Below the pieces are notes generated by a model. That model was given only the letters and a program-made list of their open reading frames with translations. It ran no database searches and was not told the DNA's origin. From positions 2,149-66,148 of the forward strand of contig JABWCM010000005.1 in the NCBI GenBank assembly GCA_013360285.1: DNA of 64,000 nucleotides, written 5' to 3'. The translations under genes were made by a program, and so were the position numbers. The stretch's first letter is position 1. The number at the start of each line of letters is the position of its first letter. This stretch comes from Myxococcales bacterium. GTDB lineage: Bacteria > Myxococcota_A > UBA9042 > JABWCM01. Of the stretch, positions 37,505 through 59,500 are shown piece after piece.

Positions 37505-37760
37505 CTCCGCACCTCCGCTACGTGGTTGGGGAACCTGCGCAGAATCCCCGGGGTTCACTGCACATATCACAGTCTCTCCGTACTCTCGCGTCACGGAAAG
37601 TTCAGAATAACTGTTTCTGCCCATTGATCCGGGATCTGCGAGCGCCAGTAATTTGCCGCCAGTCTTGGTACCCATCGAAACGCCTCTGCCAAATTGTCAA
37701 TAACACATCAAACACGCACCACGTCGTTCCGGCGCGGCTTTCACCGCACCCAGTTTTGGG

Positions 37761-43700: not shown

Positions 43701-44819
43701 GCTGCCGGCGGTCCCCCAAAGTGAACACAGTGCGTCGTCCGGTACCGTAGGGTCAAAACAAAACAGCGGCGTATGAGAACAACCCGCTGGGCCCCCGCAA
43801 ACGTCGGCGGTGCATACGTCTCCGTCGTCACAGACCGAAGCATCGGGTGTGTATGTACAACCTGTAACCGGGTTGCAACTGTCTATTGTACATGTGTCGT
43901 TGTCATCGCAGACCGTCGGCGTCCCAAAATGACAGCCGGCAGCAGGATTACACAGGTTTGCAGTGCACGGAAGGCCGTCGTCACAGGTAGCTGGGGTCCC
44001 CTGCGCGCAGGAACCGCCCGAACAATAATCAATGCCGTCACAAAAATCGCCGTCATCACAACTTACAGCTATACCAATGCAGTAGCCCGCAAGACAGGTG
44101 TCTCCTGTGGTGCAGGGATCGCTGTCGTTACATGGCGCACCATTAAAAGGGCACGCCGGCGGAAGAAGAGTGGTAATAATTCCATCTGTGGTTTTCGTAA
44201 TTAGCGGAATGGCGCCTGTGCCACTTGCGACCGCACCGGTAACGACAACCAACTTCGGGTTTGCAGCATCGACGGTTTCGCCCAACACAAAGTTTGCTAC
44301 CAGCACGACTGGATCGCCAACCAGCAAACCATTGTCCATGTGCGCATTTGACAAAGGGGGGGCATCAGGATCAAAGCTCAGCAGCAACAGGGTGCCGGTA
44401 CCGGGCCAGTCGTTCGGATCATCGGGGGACAGTGACACGATCTGCCCCGTATCAATGGAGATAGCCGGAGGAAATGAGACTGGGCAACCCTCACATTCAG
44501 TAAACGACTGTAGGCTAAGACCTTGAGGAAAATCGAATTCAAGTTGGAGTGCTATAGCGCCGTCTTGGCTCGGATTGGCGCCTGCAACACGGATGGGGCA
44601 GGAAACGGTCGAGCCGGCAGGCCCGCTGATTTCGCACAAGACGTTCGGTTCAATTGCTATGGCGTTAGCGGCACAAAAAACAACCGATGCGGCGACCATC
44701 GTGGCGACCGCCGTGTGGCAGTGGGCCAAATGCCGACCGTTTTCTGCGGCTTGGCGCCCTACCCATCGACACCGATTGACGGTGCTGGCAATGATGTTGA
44801 CAGCGGCATTCGCCGACAT
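37761..44819 (-). CDS. Giant secreted scaffoldin-like protein (~2,350 aa): 8 cohesin-like modules alternating with CDDGxxCTxDxC repeats, then LamG and a C-terminal dockerin pair
   Basis: Eight ~165-aa modules (LCEISGPAGSTVSCPIRVAG...ALQLEFDFPQGLSLQSFTEC...) resemble type-I cohesin (G.TV.VPV.....G.I...DF...YD...L). Each is followed by 6-7 copies of a ~24-aa repeat C[DN]DG[DN].CT.D.C.P..GC. A LamG-like region (LWEFDV...AWHHVALS...LYVDG) follows. The C-terminal dockerin segments are GDVTGDGMTNVVDAQ and GDLNCDTNLNVIDVQ. The start is placed at the ATG at 44819, with AGGAAAGG 6 nt upstream. The alternative is 44699. Confidence 0.65.
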   Translation of the reverse strand: MSANAAVNIIASTVNRCRWVGRQAAENGRHLAHCHTAVATMVAASVVFCAANAIAIEPNVLCEISGPAGSTVSCPIRVAGANPSQDGAIALQLEFDFPQGLSLQSFTECEGCPVSFPPAISIDTGQIVSLSPDDPNDWPGTGTLLLLSFDPDAPPLSNAHMDNGLLVGDPVVLVANFVLGETVDAANPKLVVVTGAVASGTGAIPLITKTTDGIITTLLPPACPFNGAPCNDSDPCTTGDTCLAGYCIGIAVSCDDGDFCDGIDYCSGGSCAQGTPATCDDGLPCTANLCNPAAGCHFGTPTVCDDNDTCTIDSCNPVTGCTYTPDASVCDDGDVCTADVCGGPAGCSHTPLFCFDPTVPDDALCSLWGTAGSTVACPIRLARKDAATSLPVSTQIGLILPSNTALAHFTECDGCLPTFPPATTLSSGHILSLSPINPSAWTTNGTILALHVGAPDTALLDGYYDGGTLNGEAMFVVANIQLTANVDAANPIYVRAGNITVARAGAVPMMASVNGDKVIVVSDNTVTCATPGAPCNDNNLCTTSDLCVAGVCAGQPVNCNDGDFCNGIEVCVPSSGCLSGPVPDCNDGDLCTTELCDDDIGCLPSGIVDCDDNNTCTTDTCNPATGCQNNQIAGLCDDGDVCTSEICEAPGKCVYTPLFCYDPTVPANTVCSLSGTSGATVPCIVRLARGAMAQSAASSVQLSLTFDPAEAEITHFTACEACPAPVPPSPLPHGQIVGLNPPTLDAWSGSGTILALPLSGETDPLTDAWMTGPTVNGDATLFVAWFTLASDILPSAPLHVVANDILAANSTASPMSVEVIDTIIVTNPYTVVCEDSGVPCDDGDACTSGDLCIGGLCVGAPITCDDGDFCNGLESCYAATGCESQPVPNCDDGDACTNDGCDPVLGCVSLPTVVCDDNNACTADSCDSAIGCVYDDISATCVDGDACTDDICVPSVGCEYVPLFCYDPTYDQNTLCELSGLAGETVTCPLRLARRDFSEDNAAALQLTLSYGNGATLSYLTRCDGCPGTIPPLNTLVNGHTVGFAPPNLASWSGTGTFAIVNLTNPDDAITSAYMDGGAIQGDPVFVIAHFTLVENVALDNAIAVVGSGILATGPGAYPLDASIEDGVILTGEYPVSCAASGMPCDDGNACTSGDICVTGFCVGQQIECDDGLFCNGLELCDSLAGCVSGPSPNCADSDPCTTESCDDLTGCFVSGATDCDDNDACTTDTCNPAVGCINNPGLSCDDGNDCTADSCHPVQGCIHQPLACYDPNDTDVICKLSGSAGSVQECLIRIAKRTVDQESASSIQMTLSYPNTATLSMFKECSGCAFPTPPAPLSTGHTVALSPSTPGAWSGSGNLLSLDFSGSDSPLTTGYVDGLTTVGDVEYLVGFFTLEQDVAPETPVFVKATNVIATGAQAVPLKATVENNLIVTDAYTTLCAENGSACDDLDLCTTNDTCVAGVCVGTTTSCDDGDFCNGIEFCLPSLGCQAGPSPDCEDGNQCTIDTCDSAGACDSSTVVICNDNDLCTDDTCDPLAGCTYPPHSCDDGDPCTQEECNSATGCIYAPEFCYNVTENVLCQISGNAGSTAVCLLKLARRQQPEPNASALQLSLAYPPSLTAQKLTACETCVPTYPPSVALPSGHLLLMAPGTPSNWSGAATLAMLNFGTPTAPITDAYEIPGGIDGDPVFLALTFVLSADIDPSKPAPVVATSVVASGPGAVPLIVEVEDSTIFTGVPAVFCDTPGAACDDGDTCTESDKCVSGYCVGTEVVCGDGDFCTGIDTCISDIGCVSGPAPDCEDGNICTVPTCDSFFGCLPNVPLDCNDGNPCTNDVCVPGTGCVYFDNLFTCDHGDPCVALAFCIDGICTPTGIVTSCNDNNACTLDSCESGVGCKNEGLVCVDNIACTTDSCSPTFGCQYTPNNSVCNDNNVCTSDTCNVNSGCIYAATPGPCTDGNVCTLSDQCVAGNCVGTQDPTIGTLCDAGDADLCEDGRLDCVSAITGIECVNTGPVALWEFDVLSTQIIDGSGTGNNAAAVPPATLSASGYQGGALKLSGFGGYLSSTANIPESNFTLTAYIKTATNGGIMMASAGTPLGVGGYDRTLNVTGGKLSYSVATAGGTATCSGQGPVVADDAWHHVALSCGSVDGCKLYVDGSEICASDPGDGDSLLTTQGYFVVGFTGNGGVFNGLIDQIALYEFALDSADILDLYSSGIVDEIHGRNFEFCDDSDNDCDESFDEGCACLFKGDVTGDGMTNVVDAQCTSLLALYFLVGDTGPLPACLIGPTTIGDLNCDTNLNVIDVQLVIYYALKLPVAPDANGNNCVDSCELYDCGNGICESYEYCSFCPSDCGICP

Positions 44820-45137
44820 GTTGCCCTTTCCTTGCGCCGTTTCTGGGTCACCTGAACCCACCGCGGCACCTAAACCGTCATTAAGCCAACATTTGGACAA
44901 GACCAGGTGGCTTGTCGCCGTTTCTCCGCGCGTACCCTGCGTTTTCTTCGCAGCTTTCGGTGCTGACGCACCCAAAGACGCTGTCGGGTCTGGAGGCTTA
45001 AGTTAGCGTGGGTCCGCTAAATGCTTGTTCGCTTTGGTTTTGCTACAACATTTCTGACGGAGCCTACGTGATATCGTAATGCACGGAACTACGAGCGAGC
45101 TGAGTAAACGAGCGCACTCGCGCAAATATCCATTCGC

Positions 45138-45773
45138 TTAGGGAATTTCTTGAGGAATTCCTTCGCTCTTCGGTTTTAGTTCAAATTCTGCGCCACCGTC
45201 TGGGCTGGCAGACGATCCTGTCGTCGCGGCACCGGTTCCGATTGCGCGTAAGCTAAACCCACCCCCGGTTGACTCACCGGTGGAATAAATCGGCAACACC
45301 ATCGGCAACGGGACATACCCGAGTGGTTGACACGGTGCCGCACAACCAGTGCCGGACGGGTCCACTCCGCTCGAAAGCGGCTGATTGAGTGCCAATGTGA
45401 TCAGAATGTTTACGTCGATGACGTTGACTGTTCCGGAGCAGTTCACATCTGCTTTGGACAGGGGTTGCGCCGCACAGGCGGGAGCTGCGCCAACTTGTCC
45501 ACCCAATTCCCATAGGGACAATATGATCCCACAATGGGCATCAATTACGTTGACATTGCCGTCGCCATTAATGTCGCCAAGTGGGCTGAGAATGACCCCG
45601 TTGAACGGGTTTACGCACTCGTTGGCGGCGGCCGTGCCGGCAACGGCGGTCACGAGTGCAATGCAAAATAGTCCTACGCCTGTCGCTGTGAAACCGCGAC
45701 GCTCACTGTATCTCGTGGCGCCACTGGCACCGTTTCGGCCATTCATATTGTGTGCACCCATTTGCGCTTTCAT
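45138..45773 (-). CDS. Small secreted dockerin-repeat protein
   Basis: TM/signal GVGLFCIALVTAVAGTAAA. Two Ca-binding dockerin-type segments, GDINGDGNVNVIDAHCGIILSLW and ADVNCSGTVNVIDVNILITLAL. GGGAGG lies 5 nt upstream of the ATG at 45773. Confidence 0.55.
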   Translation of the reverse strand: MKAQMGAHNMNGRNGASGATRYSERRGFTATGVGLFCIALVTAVAGTAAANECVNPFNGVILSPLGDINGDGNVNVIDAHCGIILSLWELGGQVGAAPACAAQPLSKADVNCSGTVNVIDVNILITLALNQPLSSGVDPSGTGCAAPCQPLGYVPLPMVLPIYSTGESTGGGFSLRAIGTGAATTGSSASPDGGAEFELKPKSEGIPQEIP

Positions 45774-45927
45774 TGAAACCTCCCGAACGATATAACCTCG
45801 TACGGTCATTGATGGCATTTTTTCGGACGCCCGGTACCGGGTGAGAACTTTACTTTATGGAATTGGAGCTGTTCGTGCTGGGTCGACTTCGCTGTCGGCC
45901 CAGCACCTACGTTGGAACAACGAATCA

Positions 45928-48900
45928 CTACAGTTTGATGCAGACAATTCCGGCGAACTGGTCCTGCCCGGTGTAGTTTTCCACGGGCTGATTATCGTTG
46001 TCGGCGGCATCTTTGGCCGTATTGTTGGTTTTGGAATCAGCGAATCGGAACCAACGACGTGTAAGTGTACGTCCCTGAATTTCGCTGTTACCGCAACACA
46101 CGCCGTTGTAGCAATGGTCGCCATACGTACCTGAGACAATGTTCTTCGGAGTTCCAGAAACGCTGTTTGGCGACCAGTAGCAGTCATTTAACTCCTGACC
46201 ATTTCGCCACCGGGGCTCGTCAATTCCGCCGCATTTTCCATCCGGACCGGAAGTGGTTCCGGAAGACTGGCACGTGCTGGTGTAATTTTGACATTGTGTA
46301 CAGCCAAACGCGAAGTCCGACGCTGCGGTCATGATTTGTCCCATAGTCGGTGACGGAGATGCGGTGCCCGAACCACAGCCGGCCTGGCCGTAGGAGCTGC
46401 ATCCCATCTGCCACAGTGGGTTCCAGTTGGAACCGCTCCAACCACATTCGCCCCAGTAGGTGTTGGCTGGGAAACTCGGGTTGTTGTTGAAAGCAACTTC
46501 GCCGGAATTGGCCCACTTATAACCCGCGGGACAAGCATAGGTACGGTCACGGTCCCACACGGAACTTTTTGATACCACGTACAATACGTTCGGGTGGGAA
46601 GATGAAGTACGCATGCCACCACAGTTATCGGAGGTGTCGACCCAGTCGAGAGCACCGGCGGCTGCGTCTTTCATACACAGAATGCCCGCAAAGTTAGATG
46701 TGGTGTCGGTAATATTAGCAGTGATATATGCTTCGGGTTCGTCCACGTGTTTGTATCGCAGCGTCAAGTTGGAGTCGGCGAAACGGAAGTAGTGACGGAG
46801 TAGTCCGTGCCATTGATTGTTTGGCACCGTGTAGTCTTGTGATGTTGTCCAACCACACTCTCCGCGATAAGAACGCTGCGCTTCGTTGATGATGTTTGCG
46901 GTGTTGTATTCTGCACCAAGGCGGAACACCACGTTTGCTTCGTTGGTCGTCATCCAATGGAATCCCGGCGGACAAACATAGGTTTCGGGGTTGTTTTTGG
47001 CCCACGTGTTGTTCCGGGCGATTGCGTAGTAGACCCGCGGATCCCACGCCGACTGACGAAACCCGCCGCAGTTGTCGGTTTTGTCCATCCATGCGGTTTG
47101 ATCAGCAGGTGGGGAGTTGGAAAGACATACGATACCCGCAAAGCTGGTCATCGGAGTCGAGCCAAAGGTCGAATAGAGGGTTGGTTCGGCGTGCGCCGCG
47201 TCGAAATATCGTTTTGTGCCGGAATCGCCTGTGTTCCAGGTATCGGAGAAAAAGAAATACTGACGATAACGATTTTCCCAGTTGTAAGCGCTCCAACCAC
47301 ATTGGCCATGATATTTGTAATAGTTTGTGCTGCTGCCGACCATCAAGTTGTCGACTTCGGTGGAAGCCGCCCAGTGGTAACCCGTGGGACATGTGTACGT
47401 ATAACCCGGCTTGAAAATGTTTTGTCGAGACACAGCAAAACGAATCCGCGCATTCCAGGTAGACTCACGGAAACCTTTGCAGTCGTCGCTGGTTTCCATC
47501 CACTCCGTGGTTCCTACCGGCGGATAAGCAGGCGTTCCTGTTTTTTTGCAGACAATTCCTGCAAATTCACTGGTTGCGCCGGACGTGGTGCCTCGGTAAG
47601 AATCGGCATCTGCGGCGTTCATGTAACGATTGGTTCCGGTGACGTCCGGTTTGATTCGGAAATAAACACGTTGTACGCCGTTCCAATACTGGCCGCTTGT
47701 TGAAGACCATCCGCATTGGTTGCCATATACACGTTGGTCAGACGAGGGGTTGGACGTGGTGAATGCAGCGTCAATTTCGGCGCCCGTCGCCCACGTATAG
47801 CCTGCCGGACATTGGTAGTCCAAGGCTGGGTTCCAAGTCGTAGATTTCGACACCGCGAAGTAGAAGTTGGGGTCCCATGAACTCTGACGGAAACCGCCGC
47901 AGTAGTCGCTGGTATCCATCCAGTCGGTCGGAGATACGGTCGGATCTTCTTTCATGCAGACAATGCCGGCAAATTCGGTCAGGGTTTTGTCATCGAACTG
48001 AACGGTATACATTTCACCGTTGCCCGAATGTTTGTATGCGCCGGTCGCCAATCCCTCGAACGAATCTTTGAAACGGAAGTAGTACCGGTTCATGCCGTTT
48101 GCCTGCATGTCGTAGCCGGTCCAGCCACATTTGCCGTTGTAAACCGTTCCCTGATTCAACGTCGTTTTGAACACGGCGTACGCTTCTGCGGTGGTAGCCC
48201 ATTTGAAGCCCGTGGGACATTGATAATTGAAGCCATATTCATACACGTTACGACGAGCAACCGCATAGTAGAACCGGCTGTCAAACTCACTTTGTTTGAA
48301 ACCGCCACAAAGGTCCTCGGTGAGCATCCAGTCCAATGGACCTGCCGGCGTTTTGGAGATACACACCATTCCAGCGAAGTTGGTCAACGTGCCGGATGTG
48401 GGCAACCCAAATCCGTCTGCGTGTGTGGAGTCTTTATAATAGTACTGTGACTTGCCTGAATCTTTGTAGCGGAAGTAGGTTTTGGTTTGGTTTTTCCAAA
48501 CGTTGCTCTGCCAGCCGCATTGGTTTTGGTAGGTTTTAGCACCGGCATTGTTTGCGCCTTTAAAAATCTGCTTCGCTTGTTCGACGGTCATTGCGTCGAA
48601 CCCTGCCGGACACTCGTAGTTGTAGGCCGGATCCCAGACGTTGCTTTTGGAGACCGCGTACCAAACCCGCGTATCCCAAGTGCTTTGACGGAATCCACCA
48701 CACAGGTCGGTGGTGTCCATCCAGGACGGCATCAGGTCCTTCGCACATTGTTCCGGAGCAGGTGTCTCGATTCCACCTTGGTATTCGCAGCGATCTTCCG
48801 AAGCGTTGTAGCTCCATGTGCCGCCGGACAACAACATCATCGAATACGGATCCATGGATGGATCGGCACCCGCCATGTGAACACTCCGTTTGCAGACTTT

Positions 48901-50184
48901 TGTCGGCAACGAATTCTGGCACAGGGCTGTTTTTTCGGCCGGCGTGAGCGCTGGGTCCGGAAATCCACCGGTTGCCGCGTCGATCGCTGAAATGGCCGAC
49001 GATGTGGCAAATTGATCGGGGGCGAGGCCTTGTAGGGTTTCCGAATCGGTGGAGTCCCACACCGGACTATAATGATGGCCGTCAACTGTGTCGGCGTCTT
49101 TGGACCAGCCTACGGTCAGCGCGTCGGAAATCTGACCGTCCGACATGCTGCCACCGATGGAACCGAAGGTTGTGTTGTTGGTGTCGTTGGCGCAGTTCCA
49201 TGCCCCAGCAGACCACTTCAACAACTGGCCGGTCGTACACGGCTTCAGACCAAGCGCGTTGCCGGACAACTGCATGCCGCCGCTGGCGCTCACCGTATAA
49301 ACATTGCCGACCGGTGCGCATACCGCTGTTCCGTCGGAATTGATGGTGCGCATCGCTTGACCGCTGGGACATTCGGTGCCCACACGCCGTTGGAATTGCG
49401 CCACGTCAACATAAAACCCGGCACCTTGAGCGTAGAGCCCGATGCCTGGATAGTACAGATACTCCGTGGAGTCATCCGTTCCGTCGGCGATGGTCCCCGG
49501 AATGTTTCCGACGTCGTTCCAATTCAACGAGGTCAGCGGTGCCGCCGGGTCGATTTCTTGCCACGACGCACCGTCGCAGTACTCGAGGAGTTTCGAGGCG
49601 GATACGTACCGAACAACGCCGGCGTTGTCCATGTCACAGTCGGTGTCGCCCCAGCCGATTTTGGCGCCTGCGTTGACACTTGCGCTTCCGCTGGCAGTGA
49701 CCGCTTGCACCGTTGCGGAATCTCCCATCTGCAGGAAGTCGGCCGGCATCATGCCGTCGAGTGCCTGTGCGTCGTGGGCTTCTACCGCGAACGGTTGAGA
49801 GCGTAGTCGCTGACGAGGCAGCAACTTATTGCCGTCAATGGTGAATTCAATCCACAAGTCGTTCGATGTCAGCGCATCTGTTCCGAATTGAGGAGTGCCG
49901 CCCGTCAAAACTAGGCTAAATCGACCGTCGGCAACTGGAATGTCTTCCAAGGTCGAGGACATCCATACCAACCCGGTATCTCCCGAAGAAGATGCCACGT
50001 TGAATATACGAACCTGGACCGCTGAAAGTACGCCGGTGTAATCGGCGTCATTCAACTGGAGCCGGCCGAAGTACGGCATTTGTGCCGGTGCGGCGAAAGC
50101 TGGGACAGTGGTTCCGAGCGCAAGCGCTGCGGCTAGGACATAAAGGTAAGGATTGCGACTACCGCGCTTCTTCATCTGCATCAC
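45928..50184 (-). CDS. Giant secreted protein (1,418 aa), paralog B of 33260-37504
   Basis: Same architecture as paralog A: signal peptide, VPYTGQL/MPYFGRL N-terminal region, six D.M.T.D.CGGFRQS modules, and a shared C-terminus CGGIDE..WRN......CY...N..SG.P...VSGT...HC.....CCG.SE. Confidence 0.7.
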   Translation of the reverse strand: MMQMKKRGSRNPYLYVLAAALALGTTVPAFAAPAQMPYFGRLQLNDADYTGVLSAVQVRIFNVASSSGDTGLVWMSSTLEDIPVADGRFSLVLTGGTPQFGTDALTSNDLWIEFTIDGNKLLPRQRLRSQPFAVEAHDAQALDGMMPADFLQMGDSATVQAVTASGSASVNAGAKIGWGDTDCDMDNAGVVRYVSASKLLEYCDGASWQEIDPAAPLTSLNWNDVGNIPGTIADGTDDSTEYLYYPGIGLYAQGAGFYVDVAQFQRRVGTECPSGQAMRTINSDGTAVCAPVGNVYTVSASGGMQLSGNALGLKPCTTGQLLKWSAGAWNCANDTNNTTFGSIGGSMSDGQISDALTVGWSKDADTVDGHHYSPVWDSTDSETLQGLAPDQFATSSAISAIDAATGGFPDPALTPAEKTALCQNSLPTKVCKRSVHMAGADPSMDPYSMMLLSGGTWSYNASEDRCEYQGGIETPAPEQCAKDLMPSWMDTTDLCGGFRQSTWDTRVWYAVSKSNVWDPAYNYECPAGFDAMTVEQAKQIFKGANNAGAKTYQNQCGWQSNVWKNQTKTYFRYKDSGKSQYYYKDSTHADGFGLPTSGTLTNFAGMVCISKTPAGPLDWMLTEDLCGGFKQSEFDSRFYYAVARRNVYEYGFNYQCPTGFKWATTAEAYAVFKTTLNQGTVYNGKCGWTGYDMQANGMNRYYFRFKDSFEGLATGAYKHSGNGEMYTVQFDDKTLTEFAGIVCMKEDPTVSPTDWMDTSDYCGGFRQSSWDPNFYFAVSKSTTWNPALDYQCPAGYTWATGAEIDAAFTTSNPSSDQRVYGNQCGWSSTSGQYWNGVQRVYFRIKPDVTGTNRYMNAADADSYRGTTSGATSEFAGIVCKKTGTPAYPPVGTTEWMETSDDCKGFRESTWNARIRFAVSRQNIFKPGYTYTCPTGYHWAASTEVDNLMVGSSTNYYKYHGQCGWSAYNWENRYRQYFFFSDTWNTGDSGTKRYFDAAHAEPTLYSTFGSTPMTSFAGIVCLSNSPPADQTAWMDKTDNCGGFRQSAWDPRVYYAIARNNTWAKNNPETYVCPPGFHWMTTNEANVVFRLGAEYNTANIINEAQRSYRGECGWTTSQDYTVPNNQWHGLLRHYFRFADSNLTLRYKHVDEPEAYITANITDTTSNFAGILCMKDAAAGALDWVDTSDNCGGMRTSSSHPNVLYVVSKSSVWDRDRTYACPAGYKWANSGEVAFNNNPSFPANTYWGECGWSGSNWNPLWQMGCSSYGQAGCGSGTASPSPTMGQIMTAASDFAFGCTQCQNYTSTCQSSGTTSGPDGKCGGIDEPRWRNGQELNDCYWSPNSVSGTPKNIVSGTYGDHCYNGVCCGNSEIQGRTLTRRWFRFADSKTNNTAKDAADNDNQPVENYTGQDQFAGIVCIKL

Positions 50185-50462
50185 CTCGGTGAGCTACAGC
50201 GGTTGGGCTGTCCGATTCAACCCTGGGCACTCTGGCGTGAGTGTTCCGGGCTCGGTGCCTTCCATCTCGCTAGGCGGAGCGAACGTACCACGGGATGTTT
50301 TGGTTTGGAAGAGAGAAAATGGGAGTTACAAAAAAAATTTTTTCCGAGCGGAATTTTCACATCGGTTCGTGGGTTTTGGCCACCTTAAGTCCTTGTTATT
50401 GTGTGAAGATCGCGTGTGTAACTGTTGTTACAAATAAGCGGAATCGGCGGCGTTTGTGATCG

Positions 50463-53400
50463 CTAAAATACCGGGTTGGAGACTACGCAGCGTACGTGAG
50501 CGGACGAGGTTTTCGTGGCGAATCCCGTACCGCCATAATATTGATACGCTACCCACGCCTGTGACGGGAAAACGTCCAAAGTCGTCGACGACCAATACTG
50601 TTTGTTGGCCGCGGATCCGAACACGGTTGTGTCGATTGCGCCGTCGTAAACATTGTTTTGTAATGACGCCAATTCGGAAATCGTTGGCAATCTCCAGAGA
50701 TCGAGGTCAGCATCGGTCAGATTTTCGCAGTGCGATAGTGCATTTGTCCATGAATCGGCCGGACCGGGGTCGGTTTGCCACAATAGATCTGTCCAGGGAT
50801 CGAAGGCCACCGTCGTCTCGGCGATTTTCGCCGTAAAAAAGCGATGCGGAACCGTTTGTGGTTGTCCTTGTCCGTTGACACAAACGATGCCCAGTTTCGC
50901 CGTCTCATCGGAGATTGCAACAAGTCGCCCGTCGTAGGCGTCGACAGTCCACCTCGATCCGGCGAATGCCTGCGTATTGGTCCACAATAAATCCGAAGAA
51001 GATGCGGATGTTGCGGCTGGGTGAACAAGGGCCGGGTCGTGTTTGCCAAAATGTATCAAAGTCCACAATTCGTGCCACGAAGGCACTCTCCACGGCTGTC
51101 CATCAATCAAATCCCCATAATTTGTGCATATTGTTGTTGCCGACGAGTAGGAACCTTTTGCAGTAGATACGGGCGACCAGAAAAGACCGGTCTCATTGTC
51201 GGCCCAAACCTGCCCTGACACGCCGGTTAATGTGAGCTTCTGCATTCGATTTGGCGAAAACCAATCCTCTTCCAGGTTAAGTTGTCCATCCTGGCCGCAA
51301 CCGGGTGTAAGGCCACACTGTTCCGTGGGAGGATTGCATATCAGCACCAAATCCGGTTGCGATGCGGAATAACATTTTTGTTGGCCGGTATCCGGTGGCC
51401 ACGGCATCGCAAACGGAAGCCCATTTGGCTGACCGGCGGGTATCCAGGTGACTCCGGACGGCAGGGGGTGAGGTAAGGCGATACACATCCCCGTGTCACA
51501 AACGCCTGTCGCCGATCCCACTGCCGTACACGGTTGTGCATCCATCGGTTTTGGATTAAACGCGCATTTTCCCGTTTCTGAGTCGCAATTGTCGATTGTG
51601 CATGCCAGACCGTCGTTGCAATTAACCAACGTTGTTCCTGGTACACATTTCCCAACCTTACAACTGTCTCCAACTGTACACGCATTGTTATCCGTACATG
51701 CCCCCAAAATCGGGGTAAATACGCATCCTTTGGTGACAGAGCAGGTATCGGCGGTACACGCTTCGTTGTCGTTGCAAACGGTGGGCGTTCCTGGTTTGCA
51801 TTTGCCGAATTCACAATGATCCGGCGCAGAACACGGATTTCCATCGTCGCAAGAGAGCGACGATTGTGCGGCCACAAAAAAACACCCGAGCAATGGGTCA
51901 CACTCGTCGAAGGTGCACACCTCGTTGTCGTTACAAACAAGTGTGGTCAATGCTTCGCAGGTTCCGTTTTGGCAGCTTTCGGACGTTGTACAGAGGTTGT
52001 TGTCGTCGCACAGCGTGCCGGTGAGTGGTATCGGGGTGGCGCAGCCAGTATCGACATCGCACGGGGTTTCCATACATGGATTGCCGTCGGAACAATCGAG
52101 CGGCGTCCCTCCCGCGCAGATGTTTTCGAAACAAACCGTGTCGGTTGTGCAAGCATCCCCATCGTCGCACGCGGCGCCATTTTCCACCGCAACGTACTCA
52201 CAAACGCCGTTTTTACACGAATCGTTGCTGCAGGGGTTGTCGTCATTGCAATTGACGGATTCTTGGCCTACGCATGCGCCGTTTTTGCAGATATCGCCGG
52301 TTGTACACAAGTCATCGTCGTTGCAGGCTGTGCCCGAGATCTCAACAAAAGTGCAACCACTTGTGGGATCACAACCATTTTCCGTACACTCGTCGCTGTC
52401 CTCACAGGTCTTTGGTTTTCCTCCTGTGCATACCCCATTGTTGCATAAGTCTTCGACCGTACAGGGATTGTTGTCTTCGCAAACCTCGCCATCGACGGCA
52501 ATATAAGAGCATCCCATGGTATCTAAACACGTGTCGGCGGTGCACGGGTTTTGGTCATCGCAGGTTTTGGGTTTGCCGCCGGTGCATTCGCTGTTTTCAC
52601 ATACACCGCCGGCAAGGCACAGCCCGGGACCGTCGCACAATCCACCATTCAGCGGTTCATACGCGCAGCCAACTTCCGGGTCGCATAGGTCTTTTGTGCA
52701 CGGGTTTTCATCATTGCAGTCGAATAACCACGTTCCCATACACAAACCACGTGTACACTTGTCGGATTCGGTGCAAGGTTCGCCATCATCACACGGAACA
52801 CCTGTTATGGCTTCAAATGAACATCCAACTTCAGGTACACACGAATCTTCCGTACAAGGGTTGTTATCTTCACAAATTGTTGGTGTATCTGAGCGACATG
52901 TCCCCTTGTTACACACCTCGTTCGCAGAGCATATATCGCCGTCATCACAGGGCTGCCCCGTCGCCGGAATGGAGACGCAATCGCCTTGCTCATTACATTC
53001 CTCAGTAGTGCAGACGTTGTTGTCGTCACAATCGCTGGGGTCACACGTTGTCGCCGCGTCCCCGGTGGTGTCTTCGTTGTGTGCCGTGTCATCGAACTCG
53101 TCTTCGCCGGTATCATCGGTGCTGTCGGCAACGGTTGCTGTATCGCCTCCGGTGTCGGAAATGAGATCCGAACCTTCCACGTCACCCAGTTGGTCGCCGG
53201 ACTGTGTATCCTCCGGCGTGGTTACGTCCGGATTGGCAACGTCAATCGAGACGTCGTCCTTGATGTTTGTGTCCTCCTCAACGACACATTTGCCGGCGAT
53301 GCAGGTTTCTCCCAATTGGCACCCGGGAGTTAAAGCAACAAATTCTTCTCCCGTGGACGAACATTGATAAGGGTTTCCGTCAATACAACTTTTTTGGTTT

Positions 53401-53534
53401 GGAGTGCACAAATCGTCTTCGACAACAACGGCACATGCGGCGGACATCGTGGTTGTGAACAGAATCAACAACGACATCTGACGGAATTGGGTTACGATTT
53501 TAAACGGATTCCGTTTTACTGACGTTTGCGTCAT
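50463..53534 (-). CDS. Secreted Cys-rich repeat protein (1,023 aa) with two C-terminal DUF1566 (Lcl C-terminal-type) domains
   Basis: Acidic linker, then ~14 CDDxNxCTxDxC-type repeats identical in style to those of the scaffoldin-like protein. The C-terminal DUF1566 motifs are WRVPSWHELWTL...IVCV and WRLPTISELASL...YWSSTTLDVFPSQAWVAYQYYGGTGFATKTSSAHVRCV. Confidence 0.65.
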   Translation of the reverse strand: MTQTSVKRNPFKIVTQFRQMSLLILFTTTMSAACAVVVEDDLCTPNQKSCIDGNPYQCSSTGEEFVALTPGCQLGETCIAGKCVVEEDTNIKDDVSIDVANPDVTTPEDTQSGDQLGDVEGSDLISDTGGDTATVADSTDDTGEDEFDDTAHNEDTTGDAATTCDPSDCDDNNVCTTEECNEQGDCVSIPATGQPCDDGDICSANEVCNKGTCRSDTPTICEDNNPCTEDSCVPEVGCSFEAITGVPCDDGEPCTESDKCTRGLCMGTWLFDCNDENPCTKDLCDPEVGCAYEPLNGGLCDGPGLCLAGGVCENSECTGGKPKTCDDQNPCTADTCLDTMGCSYIAVDGEVCEDNNPCTVEDLCNNGVCTGGKPKTCEDSDECTENGCDPTSGCTFVEISGTACNDDDLCTTGDICKNGACVGQESVNCNDDNPCSNDSCKNGVCEYVAVENGAACDDGDACTTDTVCFENICAGGTPLDCSDGNPCMETPCDVDTGCATPIPLTGTLCDDNNLCTTSESCQNGTCEALTTLVCNDNEVCTFDECDPLLGCFFVAAQSSLSCDDGNPCSAPDHCEFGKCKPGTPTVCNDNEACTADTCSVTKGCVFTPILGACTDNNACTVGDSCKVGKCVPGTTLVNCNDGLACTIDNCDSETGKCAFNPKPMDAQPCTAVGSATGVCDTGMCIALPHPLPSGVTWIPAGQPNGLPFAMPWPPDTGQQKCYSASQPDLVLICNPPTEQCGLTPGCGQDGQLNLEEDWFSPNRMQKLTLTGVSGQVWADNETGLFWSPVSTAKGSYSSATTICTNYGDLIDGQPWRVPSWHELWTLIHFGKHDPALVHPAATSASSSDLLWTNTQAFAGSRWTVDAYDGRLVAISDETAKLGIVCVNGQGQPQTVPHRFFTAKIAETTVAFDPWTDLLWQTDPGPADSWTNALSHCENLTDADLDLWRLPTISELASLQNNVYDGAIDTTVFGSAANKQYWSSTTLDVFPSQAWVAYQYYGGTGFATKTSSAHVRCVVSNPVF

Positions 53535-53569
53535 TGCAGCACCCCGGTTTTTGCGAAAAGAAGCGAAAT

Positions 53570-56314
53570 TTAGGATCGAATGTTGCTGTCTTTACGCAAT
53601 CCCAGCAACGCAGGCAGCACGACCACCGAGGCGATCAAACAAGCTATAACTCCCAACACCAACGTTTGCCCAAGCGATTGTAAGCCGCGGTGTTGGGCCG
53701 CCCCCAGCGCTCCAAATGCGGCCACGGTGGTCAACGACGAAATCGTGATCGCTTTACCCGCGGTTTTCACCAGAAGGTGGGGCGTCACACCTTCACGCAG
53801 CCGATGGACCATGTGTACACCGCTATCCACACCAATGCCTAAAATCAGTGGAATTGCGACAATGTTGGCGAAATTGTAGCCGATACTGAGCAGGTTCATC
53901 AATCCGACCATCCACACCGTACCCACAAAAAGCGGTAAAATGGCGAGTATTGTGTGCCGAATGGTGCGGAAATCGATAAACACAAGCAGAATGATTGCGC
54001 AAATTGCAAGGATTGCCGAACGTTCAAGCCCATCCCTCAGCAGATTGCCCCATGCCAAGTATGTAATGGGCAATCCAGTAATGTCGGGCGCCAGCGGAAC
54101 AACGAATTCCCGGAAGCGCGCCATAAACTGGGGGTCGGCAATGGAGCCTTTTGGGAATACACGTACTGCGAAACGCTGTTCTCCGGTTTCCCGTTTCCGC
54201 CAATAGGTTTGTAATAATTCGTCGGGTAGATCCTGCACCACCATGTGCACCTTGCCCGACCGAATCGTTGTGAGAGCATCGTTCATGATTCCGTCGAGTA
54301 TAACGTCGAACCTGGCCACGTACTTAGATAACGTATCGGAGTCCACTTTTCGAAGTGCTTCAGCGGTTTGTTTACATTCGAGGGCAATCTTTTGGACAAC
54401 CGAAAGAAACCTCTCCTGTTTGTGGACGCGTAATGTTAACGGTAGGTCAAGTTCGGCATAGGCTGCAAGTTTGTCCAATTCGGCAACCAGCGTGTCCGAC
54501 TGATGCGATTTTGGTAGGGAAAACTCGAGTTGCGGGAGTTGATTCAGTTTTTTACTGACCAACGTAAGCAACTGCTCCTTTTCGGGATCCGTCGGCGGCA
54601 GATAAGTTGCGATCGATTCGACGCGCGCCACGAGATCGGGTCGTTTAGACAAAGCTGCCCCCAATTCTTGCGCGTGGGCAACGCTGTCGGTAACAACGGC
54701 TGCAAAATCGGGACTGAACACGTTTTCTTCACGAAGCTGTTGTAATGCCAACAATGCCGGCTCGTCGTCGGGCAACAATTCCGCAACATCGAAACTGAAC
54801 TCAAGTGGGCGAATCAGGGTGCCTATGCCCACTGTAGCGACCACTGCAGTAATCAGAATCCAGCGCTGAGTGGATTTTCGGTTTTTTTGTGTTTTTTCAT
54901 TTGGTGAATTGATCGAAGTGGGATGGGGCAGGTTGGTTGTTCCCTGGCGGTGCCGGAGCGAAAGGCTTACCAGCACGCAAGGTAACAACGTTAAGGCTGC
55001 AGCCAGTACGAACAACAAACCTGCTGCGGACAACAGTCCCAGTTCCACCATCCCCGTGAAATCGCTATACGCTGCGGCCAAGAAAGCGGCGATGGTCGTC
55101 ATTCCTCCTGTAAAGACGCCGATTCCGGTTCCCATCAAGGTTGTCGTAATGGCATCCGTTGCGTCCACACCGTTGGCTCGCTCTTCGCGAAATCGTGCGA
55201 TGATATGGATCGAAAAATCGATACCCAGGCCGACCAGAAAGGAAAAAAACGCCGACGACAACATGTTGATCTGCCCGATTGTCGCTGCGCACAAGCCGAG
55301 CGTAACGATGATTCCTACAACGAGCGGAATCATTGCAATCGCGGTCGTGACTACCGAGCGATAAGCGATCGCGAAGATCAACATCACTAAGATAACCGAA
55401 GCAATACTCGTTCCGATGACATCCCGAATCATAAGCCGCATTTCCGCGGCGATGGTCGCCGGATAACCCGTCACGCCAACCTGCAGCTCAGGGTGCGGAA
55501 TCGAATCAATTGTTTTCAAAATCTCATCGGTAAACGCCCGCAGTGCTTCGGATTGATCGCTGTCGGACGCGGGTTGTACAAACAAAAACACCAACTTTCC
55601 GTCATGGCTGCTAAGATAACCGTGATCATCTACGCCCGCACTGGTCAGTTTTTCCCGGTGGTGTTCCGATACCAATGCCAACTCAGACCAATCCGGAATT
55701 GTCAACGCGTCGCGCAGCACACCAAACGTCTTGGAAACAGCATCGGTTGTTTTGACGATATCCAATTGAATGTCTGCTAAGTGCCCCAGCCCTTCCGTTT
55801 CGCCGTCCTCCAGTTTGGCTAGGTTCTCGTTGAGTCGGCGAATCACGTCGGTCAGCCCAGTTATGACAACTGGGTCTTTGGAATCCCATTTCAGGTCTCC
55901 CAAGGCAGTCGTTAAGTCATAAAAAGACTGCAATGACTCCTTGTCGGCGTATAGCAGCGCAAACGGTTGAAACTGTTTAGGTTCGATGCGATAGATCACC
56001 GCACCGATCGAATCGGTTCGTCTTCGTAACTCATGGGCCAATAAGTCGGCAAACTTACGGTTCTGTTCAGGATTTTCCCCGTCTATCACCACCACGTTGT
56101 TCAATGTGGCGCCAAATTCGCGGCCGAAGGCCCGAAAACGTCTGGAGTCAGGATCGTTTTCGCCGACCATGCCTTGCCGGGACGTGTCGACACCTAACCC
56201 AAACCACGCCAAACAGATCACGGACACGACCATCAGCGCCGCCCATACCACGTAGACCGACCGGCGATGGTGCGTGGCCGATGTCAGCGAGAGTTCAAGT
56301 AGTTTACGTCGCAC
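53570..56314 (-). CDS. MMPL/RND-superfamily exporter (HpnN-like)
   Basis: 914 aa with two repeats of (large periplasmic loop plus 6 TM bundle). Sterol-sensing-domain-like TM cores (GIGVDSGVHMVHRL, LGIDFSIHIIARF). It lies 35 bp upstream of the DUF1566 gene. Confidence 0.7.
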   Translation of the reverse strand: MRRKLLELSLTSATHHRRSVYVVWAALMVVSVICLAWFGLGVDTSRQGMVGENDPDSRRFRAFGREFGATLNNVVVIDGENPEQNRKFADLLAHELRRRTDSIGAVIYRIEPKQFQPFALLYADKESLQSFYDLTTALGDLKWDSKDPVVITGLTDVIRRLNENLAKLEDGETEGLGHLADIQLDIVKTTDAVSKTFGVLRDALTIPDWSELALVSEHHREKLTSAGVDDHGYLSSHDGKLVFLFVQPASDSDQSEALRAFTDEILKTIDSIPHPELQVGVTGYPATIAAEMRLMIRDVIGTSIASVILVMLIFAIAYRSVVTTAIAMIPLVVGIIVTLGLCAATIGQINMLSSAFFSFLVGLGIDFSIHIIARFREERANGVDATDAITTTLMGTGIGVFTGGMTTIAAFLAAAYSDFTGMVELGLLSAAGLLFVLAAALTLLPCVLVSLSLRHRQGTTNLPHPTSINSPNEKTQKNRKSTQRWILITAVVATVGIGTLIRPLEFSFDVAELLPDDEPALLALQQLREENVFSPDFAAVVTDSVAHAQELGAALSKRPDLVARVESIATYLPPTDPEKEQLLTLVSKKLNQLPQLEFSLPKSHQSDTLVAELDKLAAYAELDLPLTLRVHKQERFLSVVQKIALECKQTAEALRKVDSDTLSKYVARFDVILDGIMNDALTTIRSGKVHMVVQDLPDELLQTYWRKRETGEQRFAVRVFPKGSIADPQFMARFREFVVPLAPDITGLPITYLAWGNLLRDGLERSAILAICAIILLVFIDFRTIRHTILAILPLFVGTVWMVGLMNLLSIGYNFANIVAIPLILGIGVDSGVHMVHRLREGVTPHLLVKTAGKAITISSLTTVAAFGALGAAQHRGLQSLGQTLVLGVIACLIASVVVLPALLGLRKDSNIRS

Positions 56315-56580
56315 CTGATTTTCTCCCGTACAAAAGAAGTAGTGGGCGGGGGCTAAAAGCCTGTGCCCGTAGGTTTCTGATGGGTGACGGCGCGGAGATG
56401 CGCCGCCGGCGGCGCACTGTAGTAATTTCGTGGTTAATGAGCAAGAACGGCTGCGGGTTATTGAGTAAACCCACCGACAGACAATGGCTTTTGGAAAACC
56501 AACGGGGCGGTGCTTATGTGTAATTTAACGCTTGGTGGGCCGCGAGAGCAGGGGTACGTCGGTGGGTAATTCCGGCTGAA

Positions 56581-59500
56581 TTATGGGCAGTTACATGCGG
56601 AATCGCAATCGAGTGCCGCTTCCGAGACGCAGATTTCGTCCCAGGTGACTTCACAACAAAAATCGTCGAGAGCACAAACACACGACTGGCAATCCGCATC
56701 GGAACACCCCAGTCCGCCGTTTGCAAAACAACAATCGTTTGCAGCCTCACATCCGCAGTCGGTATCGCAAGCGGTTTGTGCAACCGTCGCACAACTGTCC
56801 GTCCACTCCGTGGTGCAGCAGGTATCGTCGATATCGCACACACACGCGGTACATCCGGTTACCGCGCAGCCCGGGGTTCCGTTCGCCGCGCAACAGTCCC
56901 CTTCCGGAGCCGCGCCGCAGCCGCATGCCGCCGAGCAGTCACCCGCCGCAAACTGCACACACACTTCGTCCCAGCCGACATCACAGCAGAAATCGTCATT
57001 TGTGCACACGCAGCTTTGACATGCGGGTGTTTCGCAACCCGGCTCAATGTGGGGTGCGCAGCAATCACCAGTTGCAAAGACACCAAAACACCCACACAAC
57101 GGTCCACAATCTTCGGCCGCAATCGTTACACACAACTCGTCCCAGGAAACACTGCAGCAAAAGTCGTCGAGTGCACACACGCAGGATTCACATTCGGCGT
57201 CGTCGCACCCAGGCTCCCCTTTCGGTGCACAACAATCCGAATTGGGACACCCACACTCGGTGCAGTTGGATGCGGCTTCCGCAACACACAGACCATCCCA
57301 GGTGACATCGCAGCAGAACGTATCGAGAGCACATACGCAGTCTTGGCAAAGCGGGTTACCACACCCAGGGGTATCCAGTGCCGTGCAACAATCTCCAGCC
57401 CCGAAATCAGGGCAATCACACACATCGTTGCAACCGGCCGATGCCTCCGCGACACACAGGTTGTCCCATCCGGTCGAGCAGCAAAACGGGTCATTACCAC
57501 AGACGCAGGATTGGCAGAGTTCATCTTTGCACCCAGCGGCACCCGTCGGGACACAACAGGAGCCTTCGCCCGGCTGGGAGATACACTGGCACGCATCATT
57601 GCAGTCCAGCGCCGCCTGACTTACACACAGGTTGTCCCACGCGGTGTCACAGCAGAACGGATCTGCAGCGCAGACGCATGCTTCGCACGCCGGTGCATTA
57701 CATCCTGGACCATTGTTGGGTAAACAGCAGTCGCCCGCGTCACACAAACACACCGAGTTGCATTCCAATCCGGCTTCACCTACACAGATGCTGTCCCACG
57801 CCGTGTCGCAACAGAAGCCATCCAGGCCACATACACACGCCTCACAGGCAGGGTTGTTACATCCTGTGTCATCATGGCTGCCACAGCAGTCGTTTGCGGG
57901 GCATCCACAAGCGGAACCACACTGGTCCGAAGCAATCGACACACACAGGCTATCCCATGCGGTACCGCAACAGAACGCATCGGTGCTGCAGACACAATTC
58001 TGGCACGGTAAGTTATCACATCCAGCCGTTGTGTGAGTGAAACAGCAATCCTCTGTGCCGGCGAACGGCTGGCACGAACAGGCTGCGTTACACTCTATTC
58101 CGGCCGTTGCCACACACAGGTTGTCCCAACCCACATCGCAACAGAACGAGTCCAGGTTGCAGACGCATTCCGAACAGTCCGCATCGTCGCAGCCGGCGCT
58201 GCTGTGGGGTTGGCAGCAGTCTTCGCTGTTGCACAAACAGGACGCATTGCAGTCCTCTGACCCGGCAGCGTCAACGCATAACGTATCCCACGCGGTGTCG
58301 CAGCAGAATGTGTCCAATGAACACACACAGTCAGTACATGCCACGTTGTCACAGCCCGGGACAGAGCTTGCGGTACAACAATCACCTGGCGGGCAGGAGC
58401 ATTGGCCAGCACAAGTGGTCTGTGCTTCACCGGCGCAGACGTCGTCCCACATCGTGTCGCAGCAGAAAGAATCCGCGGCGCATACACATGCTTCGCAGTC
58501 GAATGTTCCACACCCCGGGGACCCATTTGCCGAACAACAATCGCCGACACCACACCCACAGAAGTCCGCGCAGTTGTCTTTGGCACTGGCTACACACGCC
58601 GTATCCCAAGCGATACCGCAGCAGAAACCATCCAGGGCACACACACACCCTTCACACGAGTCGTCTTCGCATCCCGGAGAATTGTGGTCATCACAACAGG
58701 GTTGGTTACACAAACAGGGTCCGTCGACGTTCACCACACTGATTTGGCCGCGGAGTTCACCGTTGGGATACAGATCCGAGTGAATGTTGACATACAGGTT
58801 TCCAGCCACGAGTTCCGTGAGCAAAGTCGGCGTCAACAATGCGCTTCCGATTTTCGGCGTGCCGTCGGGTAACGGAATCACCACCGGGCCATTTTCGCCG
58901 GGCGGCGCCTGATGGATATGAGCGGCGATTTCCACGCCATCGAGATCTTTGTACGTGATTACGTAACTTAGCATCATGCCGTTTAATGTGAACGTTGCCG
59001 TTCCGGATCCTCCGGACGGAACCGGTGGATTATGCTGGCTTCCTTGGGGGGTTGCCGTAATGGACTGAGAAACCGCGCACAAACCGGTCGCTACGCTGAC
59101 ACAAAATTCGTCCCACGCCGAATCACAGCAAAACGGGTCGGCATTACACACACACGTTTCGCATTGGAAATTGGTGCATCCACCGATGTCGCTGGTCGAG
59201 CAGCAGTCACTTTGTGCTGGACAATCCAATCCGCACAAGGTTTGGGCTTCGGAAACACAGATCGAGTCCCATGCTTGTTCGCAGCAGAACGGGTCGAGAT
59301 TGCATACGCAGGTTTCCACCGCACTGTCGGAGCAACCGAGGTTGGTCCCGGCATCACAACAATCACCTTTGCACGCTCCAAATTGGCCGGCCAAGGAAGC
59401 ACAAGCACTTCCCCAGGTATCCGTACAGCAGGCGGCGTTAATCGAACACACCAACAACGTGGTCGTGTTGTCCTGGCAGCCGGGTGTTCCGTTGGCGCTG

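Follow-up and report, generated by a model that had tools for sequence, protein, structure and literature searches.

The window analysed here is a 64,000-nt stretch of contig JABWCM010000005.1 from the Myxococcales bacterium assembly GCA_013360285.1. On its minus strand, a gene for an MMPL/RND transporter (53570-56314; 914 aa, GTG start) is followed by a gene for a cysteine-repeat protein with a C-terminal Lcl_C (DUF1566) head (50463-53534; 1023 aa, ATG start, 95 Cys), with both boundaries taken from the listing of open reading frames (ORFs). The two genes lie in an island of seven consecutive minus-strand genes (33260-60021), all of which, except that for the transporter, encode large proteins of secreted type, mostly with signal-peptide-like N-termini; the secreted-protein island of the initial annotation is thus real. 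We consider it fairly probable that the two genes are co-transcribed neighbours and not an obligate functional pair, and that their adjacency reflects a lineage-specific gene order within a variable surface-protein island.

Read on the coding strand, the junction runs TCC TAA, 35 nt (53535-53569), ATG ACG, with the stop codon of the transporter gene at 53570-53572 and the start codon of the downstream gene at 53532-53534. The distance of 35 bp given earlier is exact. A start of the downstream gene at Met20 is in principle possible and would lengthen the gap to 92 nt; we preferred the first ATG because the gene of a sister species (locus L001) starts there too, with a basic n-region. The gap is the shortest between same-strand genes of the island, the others measuring 85-278 nt. 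Consensus and terminator scans found neither a promoter-like nor a terminator-like site in 53535-53569, and a fold z-score of -0.72 indicated that the gap is not structured and forms no stable hairpin. The spacer (minus strand) holds GGGGTG (53540-53545), a weak Shine-Dalgarno-like motif, of which the GGTG before the ATG is the sole part conserved in L001.

Upstream of the pair, a promoter-like block, TTGCTC-N17-TACAGT (56416-56444, minus strand), is located in the 266-bp spacer between the transporter gene and the preceding gene for a CHRD protein, approximately 100 nt upstream of the GTG. Alignment of this spacer with L001 showed no other well-conserved block, and the site was identified by this conservation; the consensus scan missed it, with 3/6 and 4/6 hexamer matches. 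The block is a candidate promoter for the transporter gene and, via read-through, for the downstream gene, and both genes would then be transcribed from it. Closer to the start, a Shine-Dalgarno-like GGGAG (56323-56327, minus strand) lies 9-13 nt upstream of the GTG. The segment GGGAGAAA together with the GTG start is conserved between the window and L001, where the gene call begins at the same codon. Past the downstream stop codon, by approximately 100-135 nt, a weak hairpin followed by A6U8 (50330-50365, minus strand) appeared in the fold as a 7-bp stem and then AAAAAAUUUUUUUU. The terminator scan did not call this hairpin, and it is a weak candidate for a terminator closing the transcription unit. 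A comparison of 49800-60300 with Rfam gave two chance matches to long non-coding RNAs far below their gathering scores, and a riboswitch or small RNA in the spacers is not supported.

Co-transcription, which the initial annotation had proposed, is plausible from the common strand and the short gap without a terminator, and we judge it moderately likely; the proposal is qualified by the chance that the downstream gene has a promoter of its own. Such independent transcription, starting inside the 3' part of the transporter gene, is a distinctly less probable alternative. The scan found TTGATG-N18-TACAAT (53873-53902, minus strand) at codon 805 of the transporter gene, with about 340 nt between it and the downstream ATG, and 28 of its 30 positions, including both hexamers, are identical in L001. 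The wider spacing of the other island genes, most of which probably have their own promoters, would also agree with it. However, the site encodes the invariant transmembrane motif LMNLLxIGYN, so its conservation is uninformative, and the scan returned 5 sites against 7.3 +/- 2.9 expected by chance, which is not significant. Furthermore, third codon positions towards the 3' end of the transporter gene show no increase in identity with L001, and no terminator separates the two genes.

Family placement, topology and rarity of the transporter

The transporter matched the Pfam family MMPL (PF03176) with an E-value of 3.7e-40. On the NCBIfam model for HpnN (TIGR03480), it scored 435.0 bits (E 5e-130), with residues 15-908 aligned to positions 9-860 of 862, against a curated cut-off of 751.85. 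The stricter HpnN model (NF052374) gave 300.1 bits against a cut-off of 1100, and the BstA model (NF045600) gave 331.1 bits (E 1.2e-98) in a full-length alignment against a cut-off of 1400. The HAE3 subfamily model was also matched, below its cut-off of 351.9. As a control, HpnN of Methylorubrum (P0103) reached 1022 and 1096 bits on TIGR03480 and NF052374, respectively. The scores of every member of the clade formed by the window transporter and its closest relatives (described below) fell between 413 and 454 bits on TIGR03480, 254 and 309 on NF052374, and 321 and 371 on the BstA model. The model of MmpL3 gave 25 bits, and that of actinobacterial MMPL (TIGR00833) 148.6 bits with a cut-off of 874.7.

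The nearest solved structures in a PDB sequence search were those of HpnN, 6wu0 (E 1.6e-49) and 5khn (5e-46), and identity to true HpnN was 25-26%. Mycobacterial MmpL structures matched far more weakly, those of MmpL4/5 at 3e-22 or weaker, in a range down to 9e-4. The initial annotation had left the choice between HpnN, MmpL and other relatives to phylogeny; models and structures alike place the protein on the HpnN side and not with actinobacterial MmpL. These matches assign the transporter to the HpnN/BstA-like (HAE-3-type) branch, which is separate from the mycobacterial MmpL branch. Its identification as HpnN itself was rejected on both curated HpnN cut-offs, and that as BstA on the curated BstA cut-off.

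The hydropathy profile predicted the RND pattern of 1+5/1+5 transmembrane (TM) helices. TM1 was predicted at residues 22-40, followed by a periplasmic loop of ~258 aa (41-298), TM2-6 (299-451), TM7 (486-504), a second loop of ~262 aa (505-766) and TM8-12 (767-904). Three motifs are invariant within the clade, GLGIDFSIH in TM4, GIGVDSGVH in TM10 and SSLTT in TM11. D366 of TM4 aligns with the Asp of GLGVDFAIQ in HpnN, and T862/T863 of TM11 align with AATTATAFG. Kumar et al. reportedly described in 2017 a functional role for the corresponding HpnN residues, D344 (the TM4 Asp) and T818 (the TM11 Thr). With these motifs conserved, an active proton-coupled pump appears reasonable. The protein would be an inner-membrane RND transporter of the HpnN/BstA-like type, powered by the proton-motive force, whose most likely task is to remove a hydrophobic lipid of the envelope, of triterpenoid type or otherwise bulky, from the inner membrane and pass it on in the direction of the outer membrane. 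The literature describes HpnN and its relatives as exporters of hopanoids, which are sterol-like triterpenoids (PMC8277102), and BstA as the HpnN-like sterol transporter of Methylococcus (PMC10942540).

Close relatives of the transporter are few. An exhaustive HMMER search of 1.84 billion representatives returned one protein at 77% identity, two at 43%, four at 38-40% and all others at 36% or less, the broad family comprising 3,235 proteins at E <= 1e-30. A word-indexed search gave, besides the transporter, single proteins at 77% and 47% and three at 43-44%, followed by a drop to 29%. Scans of genome collections and metagenomes with the clade alignment added just one more metagenome-assembled genome (MAG) with clade members. 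The neighbour-joining tree had four branches, namely the window transporter with P0002, P0003, L008, and a tight group found beside squalene epoxidase, the last of which is internally 74-80% identical. These branches are 44-49% identical to one another and stand well apart from alphaproteobacterial HpnN. The named carriers of relatives at 43-44% identity are Myxococcota/Myxococcales MAGs. For the acyl-CoA dehydrogenase of the window, the next relatives were found at 81%, presumably in the sister species, and then at 61%. On sequence grounds, the transporter is part of a small, rare third branch of HpnN/BstA-like transporters, newly defined here, that is neither HpnN nor BstA by the curated thresholds.

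Architecture of the downstream surface protein

The downstream protein matched Dicty_CTDC (PF00526, E 2.1e-33) in seven scored stretches and Lcl_C/DUF1566 (PF07603, E 4.5e-31) in two, the latter with 108 bits against a cut-off of 34.9. Pfam thus confirms the domains that had been assigned to the two products at the outset, MMPL in the first and a DUF1566 tandem with Cys repeats in the second. The protein begins with a signal peptide (residues 1-34; 53433-53534, minus strand), in which a basic n-region and a hydrophobic core are followed by a small residue and a Cys in a lipobox-like end, LFTTTMSAA-C34. The orthologue in L001 has a Cys at the same position (CVLTYG-C). Judged by a PROSITE-type lipobox rule, which we take to apply to C34, the protein is probably a lipoprotein.

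A small Cys-rich module (residues 43-83) and an acidic, Asp/Thr-rich low-complexity linker follow, the linker covering residues 85-163 (53046-53282, minus strand) with 20 D, 14 T, 7 E and 7 G among 80 residues counted. The stalk (residues 164-690; 51465-53045, minus strand) consists of ten 52-aa double units with 8 Cys per unit, or about twenty Dicty_CTDC-type CxDxNxC repeats, with the motif at positions 169, 221, 273, 325, 377, 429, 481, 534, 587 and 639. Tandem Repeats Finder detected no tandem repeat in this gene at the DNA level, and the units therefore appear to be old and diverged and not a recent expansion. The C-terminal head (50466-51386, minus strand) opens with a PDTGQQKCY...GQDG motif from residue ~717 and contains two Lcl_C/DUF1566 domains at residues ~717-885 and 900-1017, the better of the two Pfam stretches spanning 912-1017. 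For the second domain, a weak similarity to the C-terminal end of FimD, a fimbrial tip adhesin, was seen (NF052322, E 1e-4). The W/R/P/E/L columns of the tandem are also conserved in remote Lcl_C proteins. A PDB sequence search found no solved relative of the whole protein, and AlphaFold2, run on the tandem with an alignment of four sequences, gave a mean predicted local distance difference test (pLDDT) score of 53 and a predicted template modelling (pTM) score of 0.40, too low for the model to be of use.

Identity with the L001 orthologue was 61-62% for the whole protein, 62% for the stalk and 74% for the head, compared with 77% for the transporter. Faster divergence of the stalk than of the head, and of the protein than of the transporter, is a pattern usually seen in surface-exposed proteins. 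We also rejected the possibility that the downstream gene was acquired horizontally, as its GC content (0.529) and GC content at third codon positions (GC3, 0.554) match those of neighbouring and housekeeping genes. The GC3 of both genes is typical of the island and of the housekeeping genes of the window.

In Lcl of Legionella, DUF1566 is part of a C-type-lectin-like head that binds sulfated glycosaminoglycans (PMC11162425). The order of membrane anchor, spacer, rigid disulfide stalk and two lectin-like tips in the window protein suggests a surface adhesin or lectin. As a probable lipoprotein, it would use its acidic linker and disulfide-rich stalk to hold two C-type-lectin-like DUF1566 domains off the cell surface. 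The island encodes several such giant secreted proteins rich in cysteine.

Gene order around related transporters and its interpretation

In the sister species L001, the gene order CHRD, MMPL, Cys-repeat/Lcl_C is the same as in the window, with identities of 86% for the C-terminus of the CHRD protein, 77% for the transporter and 61-62% for the Cys-repeat/Lcl_C protein. The gap between the transporter and Lcl_C genes is 50 nt there. Since synteny there extends to the upstream CHRD gene, the pair in L001 represents simple retained synteny, which at this evolutionary distance says little about function.

Apart from this species, the pair was not found. None of the 20 other fetched loci of transporter homologues encoded an Lcl_C protein, the pair being absent from seven other clade lineages (38-49% identical) and from 13 more distant loci, and a tblastn search with the Lcl_C tandem matched no transporter locus except the contig of the window itself and L001. 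A homologue search with the tandem (334 aa) returned three remote proteins only (28-30% identical), too few for a broad survey of DUF1566 neighbourhoods, and even the orthologue of the sister species escaped it. Two remote Lcl_C-tandem relatives were looked up, and an MMPL gene adjoins neither. A positive control came from transporter homologues of 25-32% identity, which kept a LolA_like gene (PF17131) and a gene for a protein of ~400 aa without a Pfam family beside the MMPL gene at nine loci (L009, L010, L013-L018 and L021). In L009, the LolA_like part is apparently fused to the transporter ORF, and a comparable MMPL-LolA-like fusion, TOL_3187, is described beside a porin-like gene in Thalassolituus oleivorans (PMC6304351). 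As these partners stay adjacent at far greater divergence, a real dependency between the transporter and the DUF1566 protein should leave a similar trace. In the window itself, tblastn detected neither the LolA_like gene nor the ~400-aa partner, with nothing below E 0.05. Co-conservation of the pair therefore fails beyond one sister species, and functional coupling of the transporter to the DUF1566 protein is not supported by gene order and homology.

The neighbours of the other clade members were diverse. In L002 (47% identical), the MMPL gene is followed by genes for a short-chain dehydrogenase/reductase, a glyoxalase, a B12 radical-SAM protein and then others. In L003-L007 (43-44%), a divergent squalene epoxidase gene and a convergent gene for a penicillin-binding protein (PBP) transpeptidase were found; the epoxidase matched the Pfam family SE with 127 bits and, as the best PDB match, human squalene monooxygenase (E 3.9e-35). 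L008 has HxsB-like radical-SAM genes and a methyltransferase gene upstream and a BKACE gene downstream. The same convergent PBP gene occurs in L026, L027/L028 and L030 (38-40%), and a hydrolase and an Omp85 gene flank the transporter gene in L029 (38%). The PBP transpeptidase, directly downstream of the transporter in L003-L005, L007, L026, L027/L028 and L030 and thus in four clade lineages, is the most widely shared transporter neighbour. The PBPs are 50-80% identical among these lineages, and the gene is absent from the window.

Several observations weigh against the reading as neighbours with a lipid-exporting pump. No gene for squalene-hopene cyclase, hpn functions or triterpenoid biosynthesis was present among the large ORFs of the window that were scanned, nor was a bstB- or bstC-like partner or a sterol gene. 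The one close relative, L001, does keep the pair, and the sampling of lineages was sparse, co-conservation having been tested at one close and eight distant evolutionary distances. In addition, Cys-repeat proteins with a signal or lipobox-like N-terminus occur in the gene string of the MMPL transporter in two further lineages. In L029 (889-8726), a same-strand string encodes an 865-aa protein, an alpha/beta hydrolase of thioesterase-like type, the MMPL transporter and an Omp85/POTRA protein, with gaps of 16, 9 and 87 nt. The 865-aa protein has a classical lipobox (LILGG-C), an acidic linker rich in Thr, Asp and Gly, and CxDxxxC repeats at its C-terminus. Over 281 aa, these repeats are 34.5% identical to the window stalk (E 7e-16, low-complexity filtering off); Pfam did not call Dicty_CTDC in the protein. 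In L002 (7764-10737), the same strand encodes a pair of proteins with acidic double-disulfide repeats (NF033662; E 9e-77 and 8e-25), 3-5 kb downstream of the MMPL gene.

An operon in the functional sense, in which the transporter exports a lipid or glycolipid on which anchoring, folding or surface assembly of the DUF1566 adhesin, and perhaps of other island proteins, would depend, is rather unlikely. The initial annotation had suggested lipid export for assembly of the adhesin, which the comparative evidence does not support. The tight gap without a terminator and the retention of the pair with its CHRD neighbour in the sister species agree with the suggestion. So do the lipoprotein-type signal, by which the downstream protein would be associated with membrane lipid, and the Cys-repeat lipoprotein-like genes near clade members in L029 and L002. 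These points are countered by the lack of an Lcl_C gene beside the transporter in the seven other clade lineages and the 13 more distant loci, by the two remote Lcl_C-tandem relatives without an MMPL neighbour, and by the LolA_like and ~400-aa partners that stay adjacent at much greater divergence. Moreover, Dicty_CTDC proteins in general, like the island's other secreted proteins, occur without an adjacent RND gene.

A different link, between the clade and acidic Cys-repeat lipoproteins, would be recurrent; the pump would extract such proteins or supply a lipid environment for their display. We regard this as doubtful. A crude motif screen placed Cys-repeat lipoprotein-like genes in three of eight clade lineages (window/L001, L029 and L002) and found none in ~160 kb around the more distant transporter homologues. 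All DNA sampled lay no further than 10 kb from a transporter gene, and these genomes are rich in Cys-repeat proteins, the window alone encoding three. Any recurrent link concerns the architecture of Cys-repeat lipoproteins and not DUF1566 specifically, and the DUF1566 head would be an interchangeable tip and not a partner. If true, the link would represent an envelope-sorting route so far undescribed and would bear on the movement of lipid-anchored surface proteins in diderms outside Proteobacteria.

Least probable, and by analogy only a slight chance, is that the transporter handles lipoproteins and that the downstream Cys-repeat lipoprotein is itself the cargo, pumped from the inner membrane for delivery to the outer membrane or surface, for which we know of no experimental precedent. 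The LolA-like fold carries lipoprotein acyl chains, and the distant transporter relatives are invariably coupled to a LolA_like domain, apparently by fusion in L009; lipoprotein-type Cys-repeat genes also stand in the transporter gene string of the window, L001 and L029. However, the window has no LolA_like gene (tblastn E > 0.05), five of the eight clade lineages have no such lipoprotein gene nearby, and for the characterised HpnN and BstA, the transport of hopanoids and sterols has been described (PMC10942540, PMC8277102).

As probably co-transcribed neighbours, the two genes matter little in themselves, the finding being an HpnN-like lipid exporter next to a surface-protein gene, of which this variable island has many. 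Myxococcota are a phylum known to make sterols, and the branch found beside squalene epoxidase (L003-L007) is a candidate sterol-pathway-linked RND transporter in Myxococcota MAGs.

The remaining genes of the island, all on the minus strand, were as follows. Upstream of the transporter gene, 56581-60021 encodes the CHRD protein (1146 aa), with ~17% Cys by a motif screen, a signal peptide, a dockerin-like segment and one CHRD domain (residues 322-427). It contains many repeats of the form DCC...PGC..xxCxxCVCxxDxFCCxxxWDxxCV, and its precomputed Pfam match to DUF8252 is weak. Downstream of the pair lie genes for a giant protein without a Pfam family (45928-50184, 1418 aa), a dockerin-like protein (45138-45818), a Cys-repeat protein (37761-44975, 2404 aa) and a second giant protein without a Pfam family (33260-37675, 1471 aa). 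The 2404-aa protein combines 12 scored Dicty_CTDC stretches with Laminin_G_3 at the C-terminus and represents another Cys-repeat surface protein of the island, one whose tip domain is not DUF1566. The 1418-aa and 1471-aa proteins are secreted paralogues, 46% identical over their full length, with a weak match just to the N-terminus of a Bdellovibrio 'mosaic adhesive trimer' protein. Each has about seven repeats of ~140 aa (WMDT(T/S)DxCGGFRQSxWDxRxxYAV...CPxGYHWAT...CGW...FRFxDS...FAGIxC), which appear to be an uncharacterised repeat domain.

Outside the island, 60163-62151 on the plus strand, divergent from the CHRD gene, encodes DUF4331 fused to a C-terminal cupredoxin/plastocyanin-like domain, and is adjoined by a hybrid PAS histidine kinase gene (62161-63990). 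On the minus strand, the product of 31503-32699 (398 aa) has a lipoprotein-like N-terminus (VVVCSC) and, outside any SecDF gene, a weak SecDF P1-head-like domain.

Comparison with known systems

The mycobacterial MmpL proteins (HAE-2; MmpL3, MmpL4/5 and MmpL11) resemble the window transporter in the Pfam MMPL domain, the use of the proton-motive force and the export of envelope lipids or siderophores. They are much more distant by both structures and models, and the window lacks an MmpS-type partner. The triads of MMPL, LolA-like and porin-like genes, as with TOL_3187 of Thalassolituus oleivorans (PMC6304351), contain homologous transporters at 25-32% identity; unlike these, the window transporter has neither a LolA_like nor a ~400-aa partner, and its neighbours are cysteine-rich secreted proteins.

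BstA, of the bstABC operon of Methylococcus capsulatus (PMC10942540), belongs to the same HpnN-like RND branch, and its model is matched over the full length. In contrast to BstA, the window transporter reached 331 bits where 1400 are set as the cut-off, and linkage to squalene epoxidase occurs in the lineage of L003-L007 and not in that of the window. With HpnN (Burkholderia multivorans, 5KHN/5KHS; Rhodopseudomonas palustris; HAE-3 RND), the window transporter shares the two-loop layout with 12 TM helices, the Asp of TM4 and the Thr-Thr of TM11, and it likewise is a stand-alone inner-membrane RND protein without membrane-fusion or outer-membrane-factor genes. It differs from HpnN in an additional Asp in TM10 (GIGVDSGVH), where HpnN has Ala, in its identity of 25-26% with scores below the cut-offs, and in the lack of a hopanoid gene among the scanned ORFs of the window.

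For the downstream protein, the nearest characterised system is Lcl of Legionella pneumophila (PMC11162425). The stalk of the window protein is made of Dicty_CTDC disulfide repeats, and Pfam matched no collagen family in it, whereas Lcl forms a collagen triple helix; without collagen repeats, the window protein is, on its sequence, outside the Lcl family proper. It has two tandem DUF1566 domains where Lcl has one, and a lipoprotein-type signal where Lcl has type II secretion and an N-terminal helix. Both are surface-associated proteins with DUF1566/Lcl_C at the C-terminal tip of a long repetitive stalk.

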